64,000 bases of DNA. Origin: a virus (taxonomy: Duplodnaviria > Caudoviricetes). The position numbers were made by a program, and so were the translations under genes. The stretch covers positions 32,001 to 96,000 of IMG/VR virus record IMGVR_UViG_3300036546_000172; one strand, 5' to 3'. The stretch's first letter is position 1. The number at the start of each line of letters is the position of its first letter. Shown here one piece after another: positions 11,347 through 18,748 of the stretch. Below the pieces are notes generated by a model, which worked only from the letters and a program-made list of their open reading frames with translations, ran no database searches and was not told the DNA's origin.

Positions 11347-11354
11347 TATAAATA
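11347..11354 (+). promoter_or_regulatory. T4-type late promoter
   Basis: TATAAATA upstream of the 1643-aa gene. Confidence 0.8.
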
Positions 11355-11391: not shown

Positions 11392-14300
11392 ATGACTCAA
11401 GTAGATAAGTCAAAGTCTCCATACTATGATGATTACAGCGCTGATAAGAATTATCACGAAATTCTGTTCCGCCCGCGTCGCGCTGTTCAAACTCGTGAGC
11501 TAAACCAAATTCAGTCACAGTTTAAAGAGCAGCTTAGTCGGTTCGGTGATAATATTTTTGAAGACGGGTCTGTTGTAATTCCCGGTGAATCAAATTATGA
11601 TTTAGAATTTAAATATGTCCAAGTTAATATTACTAACTATTCTCAGATTGTTGGTCTTCTTGGTTCACAAAATCTTGAACTAGAAATGGCAAATGGTATC
11701 AGAGCAAAAGTTAAAATGTTTGCTGAACCGGAAGGTGCTGATCCTGCTACTTTCTATATTGAGTATATGGAAGGCTCAAATGATGGGGGTTCAAATAACT
11801 TCCAAGCCGGAGATACTATAACAATTAATTTGGCTGGCAACCAGATTGGACAAGCATCGGTTATTGGTACTGGACTTGGTTCTAAGTTTACACTATCCGC
11901 TGGTGTTTACTATATCAACGGTCGATTTGTTCTTGTCACCACGGAATCTGTTTTACTAGACAAATATAGTAATGCTCCATCAAAAGTTGTTGGTATTCAA
12001 TATGATGAAGTAGTTGTTACTGAGTCTGGTGATAGCAGCCTATTTGATAATGCTCAGGGTACGCCAAACTTCTCTGCTCCTGGTGCACATAGACTCCGTG
12101 TAGATACAAAGCTTGTTGTTTATGATCTGGACAGTTCAGAAACAATCCCAGACAATGTGGTTGAAATCTTCCGAATTAGTAATGGTCAGATTCAGAAGAA
12201 GTATCGCGGACCTGACTATAACATTCTTGGTGATGTTATGGCTCAGAGGACATATGAAGAGTCTGGTGACTACACTGTCAAGTCATTCAATATCGGTTTT
12301 GCTGATTTTGAGGAAGGATTCGGTCTTGAGGATGATAGCAAATTTACTATCCAACTAGATCCGGGTCTTGCTTATGTGCGTGGTTATAGGATTGAGACAA
12401 ACTCCAAGACTAATATTGCGGCAGATAAAGCACGAGATGTTGGTTTAATTAATAACAGTTCTATTTCTGCTGCTTTGGGATATTATGTTGAGGTTGAAAA
12501 TCTCAGTGCTATGCCAAGTGTTGTAAATTTACAATCTCTGAACTTTAAAGATGGTACATCGACTCTACTAGGCACCGCACGGATTCGTTTTATATCTAAT
12601 CCATCAACAAATGTTTACAGATTGTATTTATTTGATGTCCGTGATACGGCAGGTATTAGATCTACAACATTTATCAATAGTGCTGTAACGGTTGATTCTA
12701 CAGATACTGTTACATTTAGTGCTGATTTGATTGAATCAACCATCTACGAAGCAACATTTAACTCTTTGCTATTCCCGATGAACGTAGAGTTTGTCCGTTC
12801 TTTGAATGTTAACAATGGACAATCAGATACTTCATATTCTTCGGTTAAGCAAGTAACAAGTACTGTTGATTCATCGGGTCAAGTTACTTTCACTGCTGGT
12901 GGTAATGAGGTCTTTGTTGGACAAGATGCACGTTTTGCATTTGGCGCGTTCACAGATACAAATGAGTTTGTTGATATTTCTACAAGCTATACTCTTGGTG
13001 GTTCTCCGACTGGTTCATTTATCACCTTGAATCTTGGTTCTGCAAATGCTGGACGACCTGTAAGACTGAATCTTCAGGTAGCCAAGCAAGAGGTTATTCA
13101 AAAGACAAAAACAGTTACCCAGCATACAATCTCTGGTTCGGTTACTAATGGCAGACTGGCTCTCGGTAAGGCCGATGCTTTCCGTATTATCTCTATAACA
13201 GATAATGGGAATAATGATGTAACTAATCTGTTTACACTGGAACCAAATAAAACCAGTTCGTTTTATGGTACATCATACATAGAGACAGGATCATCGGTTT
13301 CCAATCCAGTTACAGTTGTTTTCGAATATTTCTCTCATTCTAGTGGTGATTATTTTGGTCCAGATTCTTATGTTGATCTGGATTATGATGACATTCCAAA
13401 TGAGGGTGGTATTAGATTATCTGATGTTCTGGACTTTAGGCCTAGAATTAATGATGCCGGTACTGGATTTACCGGTGCTGGGTCATCGGTTGGTAATATT
13501 CCGACGCCATTCAGTATTATCAGAACCGACCTTGAGCACTACTTGAAGCGTATTGATAAGGTGTATGTGAATAGTGAAGGTGAATTTGGTGTGGTTAAGG
13601 GTGTTCCTGATCTTGATCCGTCGGCACCAGCTGATCCTGCTGAGTCTATGGTTCTTTATACACTTTATGTTCCACCATATACATTTGATCTCGAAGGTGT
13701 TCAGGCTGAAAAGGTTAATAACCGCAGATATACAATGAAAGATATCGGTAATATTGAGAACCGATTGTCAAACGTTGAATACTATGTTACATTGAATATG
13801 CTTGAACAAGAAACAGAATCCGCCCAAGTAACTGATCCTGTGACTGGTGCAAACCGCTTCAAAAACGGTTTCTTTACAGATCGGTTTATTGATCACGGCT
13901 CTGCTGATTTTGCATGGCCTGGCTATCATGTCGCGATGGATGACGAAGATTCAGAACTTCGTCCTGAATTTTCCATGAATGCTATTGATCTACAGATGAA
14001 TGAGCTCGGATCTTCTAATGTTGTTGTGTCTGATAACATTGTTACATTGCCTTATGAAGAAGTAACATATGTTAAGCAGAATCAACGGTCAAGAACCCTG
14101 AATGTTAACCCATACGCAATCTACAGATGGACTGGTACACTTAAGCTGAATCCTTCTATGGATTCATGGATTGATACACACTATACCAATCCAGATGTGA
14201 CATACAGAGTCTTCAATAATGGTCGTTTGACACAAAGTTGGAAATCTTGGCAGCTTAACTGGACTGGTGGAGTTAATAGCACATCTCGTTCATTTACACG

Positions 14301-16323
14301 GACATCCGCTCCACATAGTGTGTGGAAATCAGCTGGTGCATGGGGTGAGCAAGGTGACCGCTGGAACGCAGCCAGTGCATCGGGTTGGAGAAGAACTACA
14401 GATACATTCCGTACAACCACAACAACTAGAACCAATATTGATGTTGTGAATGACCGTGTTGTAGACACATCCGTGATTCCGTTTATGCGTTCAATTAATG
14501 TTCGGTTAACCGGTAAGGGCAACCGTCCATTGTGCCGTATGCACTTCTTCTTTGACGAGACGAATATTAATCAATATATCCGCCCCGTTTCAGGAAGTTT
14601 CGGTAATCCAGTTGTGACTGATATTGATGGTAATTTTGAAGCTATCTTCAGGATCCCGAACAATGAACAACAAAGATTCCGTACAGGTGAAAAGCAGATT
14701 GTTGCAACTGATGAAGCCGGCAATAATCAACAAGTTTCTACTTCGTATTCACAGGCTCAGTTTACATCAACTGGTACTAGACAGGTTAGACAAAGGACTA
14801 TTGTTGCAACAAGATCAACTACAACTAATACTAATTTGGTTCGTCGTGTTTGGTCTGATCCACTTGCACAGTCTTTCCTAGTTGAACGACGCGGTGGTAT
14901 GTTTGTGACAAAGATCAATTGTTTCTTTAAAACAAAAGACCCTTCCGTTCCTGTAGCTGTGCAAATCCGTGAGATGGATAATGGTCAACCAACACAGACG
15001 ATTGTGCCTGGTGGAGAGAAGCTGTTGAATCCATCTGAGGTCAATCTATCCGATGATGGTTCTGTAGCGACTACGTTCGTGTTTGATCACCCGGTTTATC
15101 TTCAGGACGGTACAGAATATTGTTTCGTATTGATGTCAAACTCTAATCAGTATAATGCATTTATTGCAACTATGGGTGAACAAGATCTTGGCAATGGTCG
15201 GATTATTGTGAAACAACCATATGCGGGTGTTCTGTTTAAATCACAGAATAACTCTACTTGGACAGAGGATCAACAGTCTGATCTTCAATTTGAGATCTTT
15301 GCTGCAAAATTCAACACTGATGTTGTTGGAATATTAGAGATGGAAAATACTGATTTTGATCCAATCAGACTTCCTGCAAATCCGTTTAAGACCGAAGAGA
15401 GTAGTCAAGAAGTTATTGTGAATCGTGAACATCACAATTATGTAGTTGGTTCACAAATTACTATTTTGGGTGCTGTAGGGAATAACGGTATTACAACACT
15501 GAACGGTAATCATATCGTGACCGAAGTTCTGAATCCTAATCAGTTCAAGATCACTATGACAGAAACTGCCACACTTACCGGTGATATTGGTGGTGAAAAT
15601 GTAGAGATCTCTGACACTGTTCAGGCAAGTATCTTGAATCCAAATATCCCTGTGATTAATTTGCCTAGTACAACAATTGCTTTTGGTGCAAAAGGAACTA
15701 CAGGTAAGTCTATTGATGGAGCTGAAACCCCATATGTTGCACAGGCTAGCTATATTCCTGTCGACAATGAAACAATCAATAATTTGAGTGTTCCATGGAT
15801 CATTACAAACCGTGCTGATGAAGATTACAATGCGGGTGGGGAGCGGACATTCAAGATGCACGCTATTATGTCTACAACGAATGAAAACGTATCACCTGTT
15901 ATTGACTTGTCTGGTGCTAACGTGATTACACCATTTGTTGAAGTTACTAAGAAATCTACTGTAGAGGCGGATGGTTCTAATAACTGGGCAAATTATAGAA
16001 CTCGTGTGAATCCTTTGGCTACTCCAGCTGATATGATCAAATGTTACCTGGATATTAGAACAATTGATCCAGCTAACGTGATCATTTCTGTCAGGACAGC
16101 AAACAGTCAGGAAGAGTTTGAGACTTCAACATGGCAAGTTATTCCTAACATAACTACCGATACACCGGCAGATGGTAATAATTTCTATGAATATGAATTT
16201 GAAAAGACGGGTATGTCTCAATTCTCATTCTATCAAATCATGATTCAACTGAAGTCTGATAGTTCGGTTGTTTTCCCAAGATGCAAACGGCTGAGGGTTA
16301 TGGCCTTGTCTGATTTTAGTTAA
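11392..16323 (+). CDS. Large virion structural protein (VrlC / DUF4815-like)
   Basis: SPYYDD....Y..ILFRP...VQ.RELNQIQS, APGAHR, RTYEESGDY, RYTM.DIG, RFKNGFF.D.F, DPLAQSF, LFKSQN..TW. Confidence 0.85.
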   Translation: MTQVDKSKSPYYDDYSADKNYHEILFRPRRAVQTRELNQIQSQFKEQLSRFGDNIFEDGSVVIPGESNYDLEFKYVQVNITNYSQIVGLLGSQNLELEMANGIRAKVKMFAEPEGADPATFYIEYMEGSNDGGSNNFQAGDTITINLAGNQIGQASVIGTGLGSKFTLSAGVYYINGRFVLVTTESVLLDKYSNAPSKVVGIQYDEVVVTESGDSSLFDNAQGTPNFSAPGAHRLRVDTKLVVYDLDSSETIPDNVVEIFRISNGQIQKKYRGPDYNILGDVMAQRTYEESGDYTVKSFNIGFADFEEGFGLEDDSKFTIQLDPGLAYVRGYRIETNSKTNIAADKARDVGLINNSSISAALGYYVEVENLSAMPSVVNLQSLNFKDGTSTLLGTARIRFISNPSTNVYRLYLFDVRDTAGIRSTTFINSAVTVDSTDTVTFSADLIESTIYEATFNSLLFPMNVEFVRSLNVNNGQSDTSYSSVKQVTSTVDSSGQVTFTAGGNEVFVGQDARFAFGAFTDTNEFVDISTSYTLGGSPTGSFITLNLGSANAGRPVRLNLQVAKQEVIQKTKTVTQHTISGSVTNGRLALGKADAFRIISITDNGNNDVTNLFTLEPNKTSSFYGTSYIETGSSVSNPVTVVFEYFSHSSGDYFGPDSYVDLDYDDIPNEGGIRLSDVLDFRPRINDAGTGFTGAGSSVGNIPTPFSIIRTDLEHYLKRIDKVYVNSEGEFGVVKGVPDLDPSAPADPAESMVLYTLYVPPYTFDLEGVQAEKVNNRRYTMKDIGNIENRLSNVEYYVTLNMLEQETESAQVTDPVTGANRFKNGFFTDRFIDHGSADFAWPGYHVAMDDEDSELRPEFSMNAIDLQMNELGSSNVVVSDNIVTLPYEEVTYVKQNQRSRTLNVNPYAIYRWTGTLKLNPSMDSWIDTHYTNPDVTYRVFNNGRLTQSWKSWQLNWTGGVNSTSRSFTRTSAPHSVWKSAGAWGEQGDRWNAASASGWRRTTDTFRTTTTTRTNIDVVNDRVVDTSVIPFMRSINVRLTGKGNRPLCRMHFFFDETNINQYIRPVSGSFGNPVVTDIDGNFEAIFRIPNNEQQRFRTGEKQIVATDEAGNNQQVSTSYSQAQFTSTGTRQVRQRTIVATRSTTTNTNLVRRVWSDPLAQSFLVERRGGMFVTKINCFFKTKDPSVPVAVQIREMDNGQPTQTIVPGGEKLLNPSEVNLSDDGSVATTFVFDHPVYLQDGTEYCFVLMSNSNQYNAFIATMGEQDLGNGRIIVKQPYAGVLFKSQNNSTWTEDQQSDLQFEIFAAKFNTDVVGILEMENTDFDPIRLPANPFKTEESSQEVIVNREHHNYVVGSQITILGAVGNNGITTLNGNHIVTEVLNPNQFKITMTETATLTGDIGGENVEISDTVQASILNPNIPVINLPSTTIAFGAKGTTGKSIDGAETPYVAQASYIPVDNETINNLSVPWIITNRADEDYNAGGERTFKMHAIMSTTNENVSPVIDLSGANVITPFVEVTKKSTVEADGSNNWANYRTRVNPLATPADMIKCYLDIRTIDPANVIISVRTANSQEEFETSTWQVIPNITTDTPADGNNFYEYEFEKTGMSQFSFYQIMIQLKSDSSVVFPRCKRLRVMALSDFS

Positions 16324-16335
16324 AGGAGAAATACG

Positions 16336-16824
16336 ATGAAATTTAATAAAACTGCTTTGGGTGTTATTGCTTTCATCGTTGTTCTTATTCTGGCCGGGTA
16401 TTCTGCCCGGTCAGGAGCAGACAACGGTGCAAGGATTGGCGTTGGTAAGACTCTGATTAATTCTCATTTGAAGATTGGTGAGATCGGATATGAATATAAT
16501 GACTGGGAATTCTCTGCTACCATACTTGAAGAAGGCCAAACGAAAAACGGCTTCCAGTCAGACAACATGCACATCTATTCGGTTAGTTATCTTACTAAGC
16601 CCAAATGGGGTGTTTATGGTGTAGACCCTTATTTTAGACTAGGTGTTTCTTATAATGATGGTTCTAAGTTGATAGGAAACAGTAATTTCAGACTTGGAGT
16701 TGGTTTAGACTTTCACGATGTTTGGCGTGTAGAGTTTAGCCACCATTCTAGTGCAGGTATTCACAACCCAAACACTGGATTGGATTACATCACACTAACG
16801 TACAAAATTCCACCAATGTTCTGA
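16336..16824 (+). CDS. PagL-like lipid A 3-O-deacylase (outer-membrane beta-barrel)
   Basis: Signal peptide, alternating beta strands, C-terminal HHSSAGIHNPNTGLD matching the PagL HxSNAGxxxPNxGx(E/D) motif; RBS AAGGAG. Confidence 0.75.
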   Translation: MKFNKTALGVIAFIVVLILAGYSARSGADNGARIGVGKTLINSHLKIGEIGYEYNDWEFSATILEEGQTKNGFQSDNMHIYSVSYLTKPKWGVYGVDPYFRLGVSYNDGSKLIGNSNFRLGVGLDFHDVWRVEFSHHSSAGIHNPNTGLDYITLTYKIPPMF

Positions 16825-16831
16825 GGCAATT

Positions 16832-17068
16832 ATGGAACTCTATTTAATCATAGCATTATGCTTTATTATCATATTAATGTTAATTCCAACTGCTCTTGGG
16901 ATGTTGATGCTATTTCATACTCTAGTAAGAGAAAAGAAATCTCCAGTAGATAAGAGTAATAGAATTAATCATCTTAGACTCGTTTGGTTTGCAATGGCAA
17001 ATGAAGAAGATTTCGTTGATTTGTATCCATGGCTAAGAAAAGATGAAAAAGACAACTTGAGAAAATAA
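16832..17068 (+). CDS. Small membrane protein
   Basis: Long N-terminal hydrophobic helix, charged C-terminus. Confidence 0.6.
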   Translation: MELYLIIALCFIIILMLIPTALGMLMLFHTLVREKKSPVDKSNRINHLRLVWFAMANEEDFVDLYPWLRKDEKDNLRK

Positions 17069-17070
17069 CT

Positions 17071-17277
17071 ATGAACAAAGTACAAGGTAAAGATCATCTA
17101 ATTAAAACCGAGACAGGGGCAGTTATTAATGCTGATCAAAATGCTTACAAGTTGGCAAAGCAGCATAAAAGACGCATTATGCAAGAAAGAGAAAAGCAAC
17201 AATCACTCGAAGATCGAATTGGAAGACTCGAACAGCTTATCTCAAAACTTACCGGAGAAGAAGGTGAACAACTTTAA
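17071..17277 (+). CDS. Small coiled-coil protein
   Basis: 68 aa, L.K..TGAVIN.D motif; position before the neck genes. Confidence 0.6.
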   Translation: MNKVQGKDHLIKTETGAVINADQNAYKLAKQHKRRIMQEREKQQSLEDRIGRLEQLISKLTGEEGEQL

Positions 17278-17731
17278 GTTCAGTCAGAGAAGTATAAACA
17301 ATCTCCAATATGTAGATGAAGACCTGGTAGAGACTTGTTACTTGGCTCTAGAGTTTAGCACAGTCGATTTTGGTATTTCCGAAGGGCTTAGAACAAAATC
17401 TAGACAAAAAGAGTTGTTTGATAGCGGTAAATCACAAACAATGAATAGCAAACATCTCGATAATCCATCTACACCGGATATTATTGACAGCTGGGCTGTT
17501 GATGTTTACGCCTATGTCAATGGTGGTGTTTCCTGGGACATTAAGCATTATATTCAAATTGCTGAAGCATTTAGACAAGCTGGTATTGAATTAAATAACA
17601 AAATAAGATGGGGCGGTTCGTGGACAATCTTAAATAATGAACCAAGTGCAGAGATCGCATATGAAGATTATGTTGAATCTAGGCGAAGTCCATTTGTCGA
17701 TGGCCCTCACTTTGAAATCATTAAGGACTAA
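17264..17731 (+). CDS. Endolysin, peptidase M15 (L-Ala-D-Glu peptidase type)
   Basis: FS.RS..NL..V..DL, EGLRT..RQ, SKH....AVD, RWGG.W, DGPHFE; GTG 17264 follows GGAGAAG. Confidence 0.85.
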   Translation: MNNFKFSQRSINNLQYVDEDLVETCYLALEFSTVDFGISEGLRTKSRQKELFDSGKSQTMNSKHLDNPSTPDIIDSWAVDVYAYVNGGVSWDIKHYIQIAEAFRQAGIELNNKIRWGGSWTILNNEPSAEIAYEDYVESRRSPFVDGPHFEIIKD

Positions 17732-17734
17732 CAA

Positions 17735-18472
17735 ATGGCTGTAACATCAAGAGAAGAATTAAAACAATATTGCTTACGTCGCCTTGGTCAGCCAGTCATT
17801 GATATTAACGTTGATGATACACAGCTTGAAGATCGTATTGATGAAGCACTGGAGGTTTATCAAGAGAAGCACTATGACGCAACCGAACGTGACTGGGTCT
17901 ACTATGAGATAACTCAGACTGACATCGACAATGGATACGTGTCTATTCCTGATGACATCTTGGTGGTGATCTCTATATTACCATTTAATGAGATTATCGC
18001 CCAAGGCAATATGTTCTCATATCAGTATCAAATTGCACTGTCTGAATTGTCTCCTTGGCGTCCATTTAACCAATTAGACTATTTCATGAAAGTGACTAAT
18101 TACGAGTCCATTGCTAACATGACATCCGTGACTCCTACCATGGATTTTTCGCGTCATGGTCGCAAATTGAAGATCTTTGCCGAGCTTGGGAACTTGGGTG
18201 TAGGCTATAAGCTGGGCGTACAGGTTCAAAGAATAATTGACCCTGAAACAGTGACAGCTGTTTATAATGACAAATGGTTGAAGCAATATGTTACTGCTTT
18301 GATGCAAAAACAATGGGGAATGAATATGAAAAAGTTCTCTGGTGTTCAGATGCTGGGTGGTGTAGAGCTTAACGGTCAGCAGTTATTCGATGAGGCAGTA
18401 CAAGAGATTGAGCGTCTGGAAGAGCAGTTAGAAACAACGTATATGCTCCCTGTTGATATGCTTATAGGATAG
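17735..18472 (+). CDS. gp13: Neck protein gp13
   Basis: LKQYCLRRLG.PVI.INV...Q.EDRI.EAL; W.K.Y.TAL...QWG.N..KF.G..M.GGV.LNG. Confidence 0.92.
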   Translation: MAVTSREELKQYCLRRLGQPVIDINVDDTQLEDRIDEALEVYQEKHYDATERDWVYYEITQTDIDNGYVSIPDDILVVISILPFNEIIAQGNMFSYQYQIALSELSPWRPFNQLDYFMKVTNYESIANMTSVTPTMDFSRHGRKLKIFAELGNLGVGYKLGVQVQRIIDPETVTAVYNDKWLKQYVTALMQKQWGMNMKKFSGVQMLGGVELNGQQLFDEAVQEIERLEEQLETTYMLPVDMLIG

Positions 18473-18475
18473 AGT

Positions 18476-18748
18476 ATGGATAACAGAGAGCGAGAAGAGA
18501 TAGAATTTCAAAGAGAAACACGCAAATGGCGCATACGACGTCGATTTGCAGTGATCTCATTTGTTCATTTGCTGATGCTGACTCTGTTCTATCTCATTGC
18601 ACCGTTTCATCTGACTCCAGAAGAATCTAAGGTGTTTGCCGATTTCAACTCCATTATGATGACCCTCATCGGTTTCTTCAGTGGAATTGTGATGCTGTAC
18701 ATGGGAGCGGTTACATACGCTGATCAGCACGTCAAGATAAATAGTTAA
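18476..18748 (+). CDS. Two-TM membrane protein (holin candidate)
   Basis: Basic N-terminus RKWRIRRR followed by two hydrophobic helices. Confidence 0.5.
   Translation: MDNREREEIEFQRETRKWRIRRRFAVISFVHLLMLTLFYLIAPFHLTPEESKVFADFNSIMMTLIGFFSGIVMLYMGAVTYADQHVKINS
18736..18743 (+). promoter_or_regulatory. Late promoter variant
   Basis: GATAAATA upstream of gp14. Confidence 0.55.

Follow-up and report, generated by a model that had tools for sequence, protein, structure and literature searches.

A PagL-like outer-membrane esterase predicted among the late genes of a T4-like phage, and a tentative part for it in lysis

Why should a T4-like phage carry a gene for an enzyme predicted to act on the lipid A of the outer membrane? 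The question is raised by an open reading frame at 16336-16824 (+ strand) in a 64,000-nucleotide stretch of DNA from a tailed phage (Caudoviricetes), referred to here as the window and corresponding to bases 32001-96000 of the IMG/VR record IMGVR_UViG_3300036546_000172; the record is 137,942 bp long, has direct terminal repeats and is estimated to be complete. From the sequence of the window, this gene had been predicted to encode a lipid A deacylase like PagL, situated in a late operon beside the endolysin and perhaps standing in for a missing spanin (the original prediction). PagL itself is known from pathogens, in which it is encoded on the chromosome, is regulated by PhoPQ and remodels lipid A. 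Judging by its sequence and modelled structure, the phage protein is likely to be an active PagL-type esterase inserted in the outer membrane. The role we favour for it, assisting lysis, is held tentatively and is rather more apt to be wrong than right.

The gene encodes a 162-amino-acid precursor of a predicted PagL-family outer-membrane serine esterase (lipid A 3-O-deacylase-like). Its ATG stands 13 nucleotides past the stop codon of the upstream gene and is preceded, at a distance of 7 nucleotides, by a ribosome-binding site, AGGAG, read from the sequence at 16324-16328 (+). The signal peptide that had been claimed is present: amino acids 1-28 (16336-16419, +; read from the sequence without a dedicated predictor) begin with MKFNK and comprise a lysine-rich n-region, a hydrophobic core and a small-x-small motif, with predicted cleavage between SGA and DN, a site kept across the family as S/A-x-A. 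In an AlphaFold2 (AF2) model, residues 5-23 form a helix and the barrel begins at residue 31, while the first mature residue of the Pseudomonas aeruginosa PagL structure (2ERV) pairs with model residue 30. The C-terminus is aromatic (...PPMF), and the terminal residue of the family consensus is F or W. The C-terminal segment on which the original prediction drew, HHSSAGIHNPNTGLDYITLTYKIP, lies in the reading frame at exactly 16336-16824 (+).

A search with the Pfam PagL profile (PF09411) gave a score of 32.8 bits, where the cut-off is 23 (E 9e-8, with profile positions 19-135 covered out of 136), and the same profile was matched by 32 of the 34 relatives, with no competing family. The sole significant match in the PDB by sequence was 2ERV, with an E value of 8.7e-4 for the single sequence and 1e-4 for a profile of the family. 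The AF2 model, built from an alignment of the 34 relatives, has a mean predicted local distance difference test score (pLDDT) of 88 and a predicted template-modelling (TM) score of 0.77, and bears out the barrel-like strand pattern noticed earlier; the eight-stranded barrel is assigned by the structural match of the model to eight-stranded outer-membrane barrels. Here too 2ERV is the top match, both in Foldseek (E 4.8e-6, TM 0.56-0.60, 23% identity) and in VIA-align (Z 17.3, root-mean-square deviation 2.0 Å, 124 residues aligned). PagL thus comes out on top in all the comparisons, whether of structure or of sequence, a resemblance far beyond chance.

Eight-stranded barrels are a common fold, and one may ask whether the protein is instead a small barrel without enzymatic activity, an adhesin or structural protein like Lom, Ail or OmpX. 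Generic eight-stranded barrels score well against the model, about two Z units below PagL (OprF 15.3, OmpA 14.3; also NspA), and phage-encoded outer-membrane barrels are common in BFVD. Phage lambda lom encodes such a barrel beside tail-fibre genes as accessory cargo, so that the Lom/Ail family shares with the protein studied here both its eight strands and its position as accessory cargo by tail-fibre genes. Unlike it, these barrels have no catalytic triad and are expressed from prophages. The Z values of Ail (8.7 for 3qra to 9.7 for 2n2l) and OmpX (9.3 for 1qj9 to 10.4 for 2m06) are low, the protein has no Pfam match to Ail_Lom, OmpA_membrane or OMP_b-brl, and its matches in BFVD, none above 17% identity, are all generic barrels. 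The Pfam match, by comparison, is specific to PagL. Together with the conservation of the catalytic residues, to which we now turn, this makes a non-enzymatic barrel scarcely credible.

The catalytic residues of P. aeruginosa PagL are His126, Ser128 and Glu140, and its oxyanion hole includes a conserved asparagine, Asn129, directly after the catalytic serine (PMC4402001, for the catalytic residues summarising Rutten 2006); the numbering used here follows this review and the alignment to 2ERV. By HMMER alignment, H136, S138, S139 and D150 of the phage protein correspond to H126, S128, N129 and E140 of 2ERV. The active-site segment, H136-H-S138-S139-A-G...N146-T-G148-L-D150, is encoded at 16741-16785 (+), with the histidine codon at 16741-16743, the serine codon at 16747-16749 and the aspartate codon at 16783-16785. 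The spacing of the triad is identical to that of PagL, the acid standing 12 residues past the serine, and the replacement of glutamate by aspartate is conservative. The HxS...N...E/D pattern proposed from the sequence therefore holds for the histidine, the serine and the acid; the asparagine counted in it, N146, is conserved as well, but it is not the oxyanion residue, whose position is occupied by Ser139.

All six of H136, S138, S139, N146, G148 and D150 are invariant among the 34 relatives, which are 38-98% identical to the phage protein. In a wider set of 78 representatives, with identities down to 26%, the histidine and the serine are each present in 78/78 and N146 in 77/78, and position 150 is aspartate in 67, asparagine in eight, threonine in two and glutamate in one. 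Because the histidine, the serine, N146 and the acidic position are kept across such diverged relatives, the pattern of conservation points to an enzyme under selection, not an inert barrel. Position 139 varies more: serine in 57 of the 78, asparagine in ten, threonine in eight, aspartate in two and cysteine in one.

The absence of the oxyanion asparagine counts against a simple equation of the protein with PagL. The hydroxyl of Ser139 could fill the oxyanion role, or its presence may mean that substrate or kinetics differ from those of PagL. It is conceivable, for example, that an active esterase of PagL fold acts here on another ester lipid of the outer membrane, such as a phospholipid that has strayed into the outer leaflet, an aminolipid (an ornithine lipid or another) or some other ester of lipid A. 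Serine in place of Asn129, invariant in the near family, aspartate in place of glutamate and the low overall identity to PagL would all fit this. Neither family nor fold offers a competitor, however, and PagL is matched so closely, both in the spacing of the triad and in the flanking motif SxAG...PNxGxD/E, that we regard a different substrate as improbable. The resemblance to PagL (PF09411; 2ERV; also in Salmonella and Bordetella) extends to the whole protein: both have a signal peptide, an eight-stranded outer-membrane barrel, about 135-150 mature residues, a His-x-Ser on the penultimate strand with the acid at +12 within H-x-S-x-A-G...P-N-x-G-x-(E/D), and an aromatic C-terminus. Apart from the substitutions already named, the phage protein differs in its shorter loops and in being the product of a phage late gene, whereas pagL of Salmonella is a chromosomal gene regulated by PhoPQ.

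The family to which the protein belongs is essentially phage-borne. A word-indexed search returned 104 clusters at 90% identity, most of them nameless and one source using 'opacity protein-like surface antigen', and an exhaustive search returned 83 representatives at 50% identity; 44 related loci were found in IMG/VR. A relative turned up in just three of 185,579 species-representative bacterial genomes, one of them that of Denitromonas iodatirespirans. The cultured marine betaproteobacterium Denitromonas carries a PagL-like gene, 44-49% identical, in a P2-like prophage (D. iodatirespirans, NZ_JAEKFT010000010.1, L051:4965-5465; the D. halophila locus is L053). The two distant representatives that were examined both lie on phage-like contigs. 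A 60%-identical copy occurs on a 151,597 bp sequence labelled as a metagenome-assembled genome (MAG) of an Idiomarinaceae bacterium (NCBI PAZB01000053.1; L002), which is evidently a T4-like phage genome, by its looks complete, that was binned as a bacterial MAG. It contains baseplate wedge and gp10-like genes, a tail fibre, the PagL gene, a holin-like gene, an Rz/Rz1 pair, RNR and ThyX. Overall, the carriers include myovirus, P2-like and T7-like-portal contexts.

That such a gene is unusual in phages, as had been supposed, is borne out. A tblastn search with the protein among 50,697 cultured-phage records found no homologue, megablast of 15800-17800 against cultured-phage records gave no match, PHROGs has no family for the protein and NCBIfam returned nothing meaningful. 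The literature searched contains no description of a phage PagL; one candidate report, PMC6863877, was set aside as it concerns the chromosomal LpxR, and another, PMC9004378, as its 'PagL' is part of the author name Pagliara. A distinct phage-borne PagL clade is thus new to these sources, and its catalytic residues appear to have been preserved in about 100 protein clusters and in several types of phage.

The phage is T4-like, as predicted: a gp6-type wedge, gp13/14/15, TerL, sheath and a gp20-type portal were all recognised, and the surroundings of the PagL gene are a T4-type late module. The placement in a late operon beside the endolysin also stands, the gene for an M15 endolysin lying about 440 nucleotides downstream with two small genes intervening. 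In order, the module contains the gp6-type wedge and other baseplate and tail-fibre proteins, a 1643-amino-acid protein, PagL, proteins of 78 and 68 amino acids and the endolysin, followed by the head-tail adaptor (gp13-like), head-closure (gp14-like) and tail-sheath-stabilizer (gp15-like) proteins, terminase, sheath and portal. The 1643-amino-acid virion-module protein (11392-16323, +; phrog_358) is encoded immediately upstream of PagL in the same operon and is 39% identical over its full length to gp123 of Pseudomonas phage pf16, the closest cultured phage by portal sequence (56% identity). The 68-amino-acid coiled-coil protein (17071-17277, +; phrog_473, 'virion structural protein') is 38% identical to pf16 gp122. 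The two genomes are colinear through the wedge, gp123, gp122, adaptor and head-closure genes, except that the PagL and 78-amino-acid genes are absent from pf16 and are placed, in the window, exactly between the homologues of gp123 and gp122. This insertion is not recent, since the PagL gene has a GC content of 40.1% against 42.6% for the genome and a median codon usage (rank 33 of 69); recent horizontal acquisition of the gene, which we considered, finds no support in composition or codon usage.

The T4 late promoter consensus is TATAAATA, and a motif of this sequence lies at 11347-11354 (+), 38 nucleotides ahead of the gene for the 1643-amino-acid protein. There are four such sites in the window, all intergenic and on the + strand (9977, 11347, 22406 and 24596), and each stands 35-50 nucleotides ahead of the start of a late structural gene (10019, 11392, 22455 and 24643). 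Four sites against 2.6 expected is not a significant excess, and the case depends on placement. The placement suggests a late transcription system of the gp55 type; pf16 has an annotated late sigma factor. No terminator-like site was found on the + strand between 13964 and the PagL start. Given the position of the motif and the lack of terminator-like sites over this distance, it is likely that the PagL gene is transcribed late together with the baseplate and virion genes, the site at 11347 being the probable promoter of the transcript that carries it.

What neighbours does the gene keep elsewhere? Genes were called and clustered in 51 loci and the recurrent neighbours annotated, which gave about 20 distinct arrangements. 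PagL repeatedly lies between genes for tail fibres and genes for lysis. On the upstream side a baseplate or tail-fibre gene is usual, either gp10-like (c1) or a DUF4376 tail-fibre-like gene (c3, in 16 loci), with true tail fibres in L002, L039 and L049 and a tail fibre or spike in L052. Downstream, within four genes, lysis genes occur in about nine of the arrangements, and these are not homologous to one another; by a rough estimate, fewer than 10% of random genes would have a lysis gene so near. They include endolysins (M15 in the window, Amidase_3 in L005, L008 and L029, M15-like in L026 and L028, a transglycosylase in L041), holins (lambda-S-type in L008 and L031, others in L027, L035, L036, L038 and L044) and spanins (an Rz/Rz1 pair preceded by a protein with two transmembrane segments in L002-4 and L014).

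An accessory role in lysis is favoured because of this linkage to differing lysis cassettes, the position in a late operon and the precedent of LysB. Mycobacteriophage LysB is an esterase of the lysis cassette that cuts the linkage ester of the outer mycomembrane to complete lysis (PMC5707550). LysB, a mycolylarabinogalactan esterase, resembles the protein studied here in being a phage-encoded serine esterase, and this functional analogy lies behind the lysis reading; it is, however, a soluble alpha/beta hydrolase and not an integral beta-barrel, the envelope and the substrate differ, and its role has been demonstrated experimentally where that of the PagL-like protein is predicted. As to mechanism, Sec would export the precursor, guided by its cleavable signal peptide, and the barrel assembly machinery (BAM) would insert it into the outer membrane of the host, with the C-terminal aromatic residue as beta-signal, as sequence and fold suggest. 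Under-acylated lipid A would then pack the lipopolysaccharide (LPS) more loosely, and the outer membrane would yield more easily to the endolysin and to the phage's own spanins. Such help could matter in seawater, where Mg2+ and Ca2+ would rigidify the LPS. Stated in full, the proposal is of a catalytically competent PagL-family esterase, an accessory late gene product of a T4-like marine phage, that aids lysis by loosening LPS; we put it forward as a possibility, with some doubt.

A number of observations weigh against this reading, and the first concerns the spanins just mentioned. A scan of the whole genome for transmembrane segments revealed an i-spanin of 134 amino acids with an N-terminal transmembrane segment and a coiled coil (genome 131077-131481, +), its gene overlapping by 13 nucleotides that of an o-spanin, a 106-amino-acid lipoprotein with the lipobox LLQGC (131469-131789, +). 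Both are Rz-like by PHROGs (phrog_739, E 2.5e-11, and phrog_812, E 6.2e-21). The pair (L057:1578-2290) falls at about 99077 in window coordinates and thus outside the window. The phage's own genome has no match to PF10828 (DUF2570) or PF23793 (LysC), and two other lipoproteins, at genome 119422 and 134798, were considered as o-spanins and rejected as unrelated.

The statement that no spanin is recognisable is therefore true of the 64-kb window and untrue of the genome. Of the phages that infect Gram-negative bacteria, about 15% have no spanins and use other means (bioRxiv 10.1101/515445), and with an endolysin adjacent and no spanin in the window, PagL might have been the outer-membrane disruptor of such a phage. 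The canonical pair in the same genome removes the need for a substitute, and a 60%-identical PagL homologue stands directly beside an Rz/Rz1 pair. Since this phage has spanins and relatives carry PagL next to theirs, PagL is not a spanin substitute and is not needed to breach the outer membrane; replacement of spanins is largely refuted and highly improbable. By the test that the original prediction set for itself, the same finding weakens an essential role in lysis; the protein may still be an accessory. Spanins (Rz/Rz1) and the disruptin of phiKT, gp28, are phage proteins that overcome the outer membrane in the final stage of lysis, as the PagL-like protein would help to do on the lysis reading. 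Unlike it, they are non-enzymatic, working by membrane fusion or as a cationic peptide, and in a phage that has spanins PagL would be at most an accessory to them.

The other points on this side, besides the serine at the oxyanion position, come from the setting of the gene. Several arrangements have nothing related to lysis near PagL; tail-fibre genes are found upstream as consistently as lysis genes downstream, and cargo genes are common where the modules for tail fibres and lysis meet. In the Denitromonas prophage (L051), the gene lies between the tail-fibre assembly and sheath genes, away from the lysis genes, and pf16 does without it altogether. Because of the constant linkage to tail fibres, the cargo position in the prophage and the presence of spanins, remodelling of the cell surface and action on a different substrate stay alive as explanations.

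Remodelling could take the form of spoiling receptors: acting on the LPS of the infected cell, of debris and of vesicles, the same enzyme would lower adsorption or ejection by phages of the same kind. This would suit the most constant neighbour, a tail-fibre or baseplate gene directly upstream, of which the assembly gene of L051 is an instance along with the cases listed above, and it would suit the reverse transcriptase found near PagL in some loci. The latter (phrog_1423, E 7e-87; L012:3351-4445) lies one gene upstream of PagL in L012, two genes upstream in L008 and directly upstream in L021, and probably belongs to a diversity-generating retroelement serving a tail-fibre gene. A prophage copy at a site remote from lysis genes also fits a function useful in a live cell. 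There is an analogue in T5, whose Llp is encoded beside the gene for the receptor-binding protein and, acting at the host surface, prevents both superinfection and loss of progeny on debris; Llp, however, has no homology to the PagL-like protein and no enzymatic function, being a lipoprotein that masks FhuA. On the other side, the 3-O-acyl chain, buried as it is in the membrane, forms no exposed receptor determinant, late expression fits superinfection exclusion poorly, and the linkage to tail fibres may reflect nothing beyond a permissive insertion site. We consider receptor spoiling unlikely.

The same prophage raises the question of whether the gene is a cargo gene, or moron, useful to lysogens through effects on the envelope or on vesicle output, which has spread horizontally to lytic T4-like phages and does little there. 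Its cargo position in the P2-like prophage, its insertion relative to pf16 and its presence in three phage contexts are what such a history would leave. Against this, its composition and codon usage match those of the T4-like genome, all its catalytic residues are kept, and it has been maintained across dozens of diverged T4-like contigs; these three facts together argue for selection in lytic phages and leave a mere cargo gene quite improbable.

Should the accessory lysis role hold, its interest would go beyond this phage, as it bears on whether phages of Gram-negative bacteria confine themselves to fusing or puncturing the outer membrane or can also break it down with enzymes. A broader and more doubtful conjecture is that there exists an unrecognised enzymatic class of late envelope-attacking phage proteins, outer-membrane lipid A deacylases that would soften the LPS leaflet ahead of lysis or in the course of it, partnering spanins as LysB of mycobacteriophages partners endolysin, and that would be widespread in uncultured marine phages. 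It is in the surroundings of these phages, rich in Mg2+ and Ca2+, that the outer membrane resists breakage most. In the sea, such an enzyme would be relevant to the way in which the pool of LPS and vesicles is shaped by viral lysis. A deacylase that inserts itself could also be useful for making low-endotoxin LPS or vesicles. Receptor spoiling, were that its function instead, would give a first example of exclusion through lipid A. With 162 amino acids and a clear catalytic-dead control, the protein is a concrete and easily cloned candidate, and the Denitromonas P2-like prophage offers a tractable system with a real host for a PagL-like enzyme.

The second gene of the inserted cassette, that for the 78-amino-acid protein (c2; 16832-17068, +), encodes a single-pass membrane protein of unknown function that has no Pfam or PHROG match. 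It is directly downstream of PagL in 19 loci and is also found elsewhere without PagL, for which reason an obligate pairing of the two was rejected. Conservation is very strong in the motif at its C-terminus, P[AV]DKSNRINH[LF]RLVWFA...FPW..DE, and by the positive-inside rule this part would be cytoplasmic; the protein could be a lysis-timing or membrane factor.

The endolysin gene has two possible starts. The long open reading frame (17129-17731, +) overlaps the gene for the 68-amino-acid protein (17071-17277), and its alignment to phrog_465 (endolysin, E 4.9e-52) begins at residue 29; there is in addition a weak match to Peptidase_M15_4. The true start is probably the GTG at 17264, which has GGAG 6 nucleotides upstream and would give an M15-type peptidase of 155 amino acids (17264-17731, +). 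In pf16, the corresponding slot holds a non-homologous gene for 189 amino acids without a PHROG match. Further along the late operon, between the gp13-like and gp14-like genes, a 90-amino-acid protein with two predicted transmembrane segments (18476-18748, +; phrog_22774, function unknown) could be a holin or a small membrane protein of another kind.

Two further groups of genes lie outside the window. After the spanin pair, a 148-amino-acid protein with three predicted transmembrane segments and no family match (L057:2416-2862) is a candidate holin. At genome 119090-121690 (+) there is a translationally coupled trio of unknown role, consisting of a 111-amino-acid membrane protein with a zinc ribbon and a TM2-like domain, a 75-amino-acid lipoprotein (lipobox LSGC) and a 700-amino-acid protein that, by eye, resembles a von Willebrand factor A domain protein.

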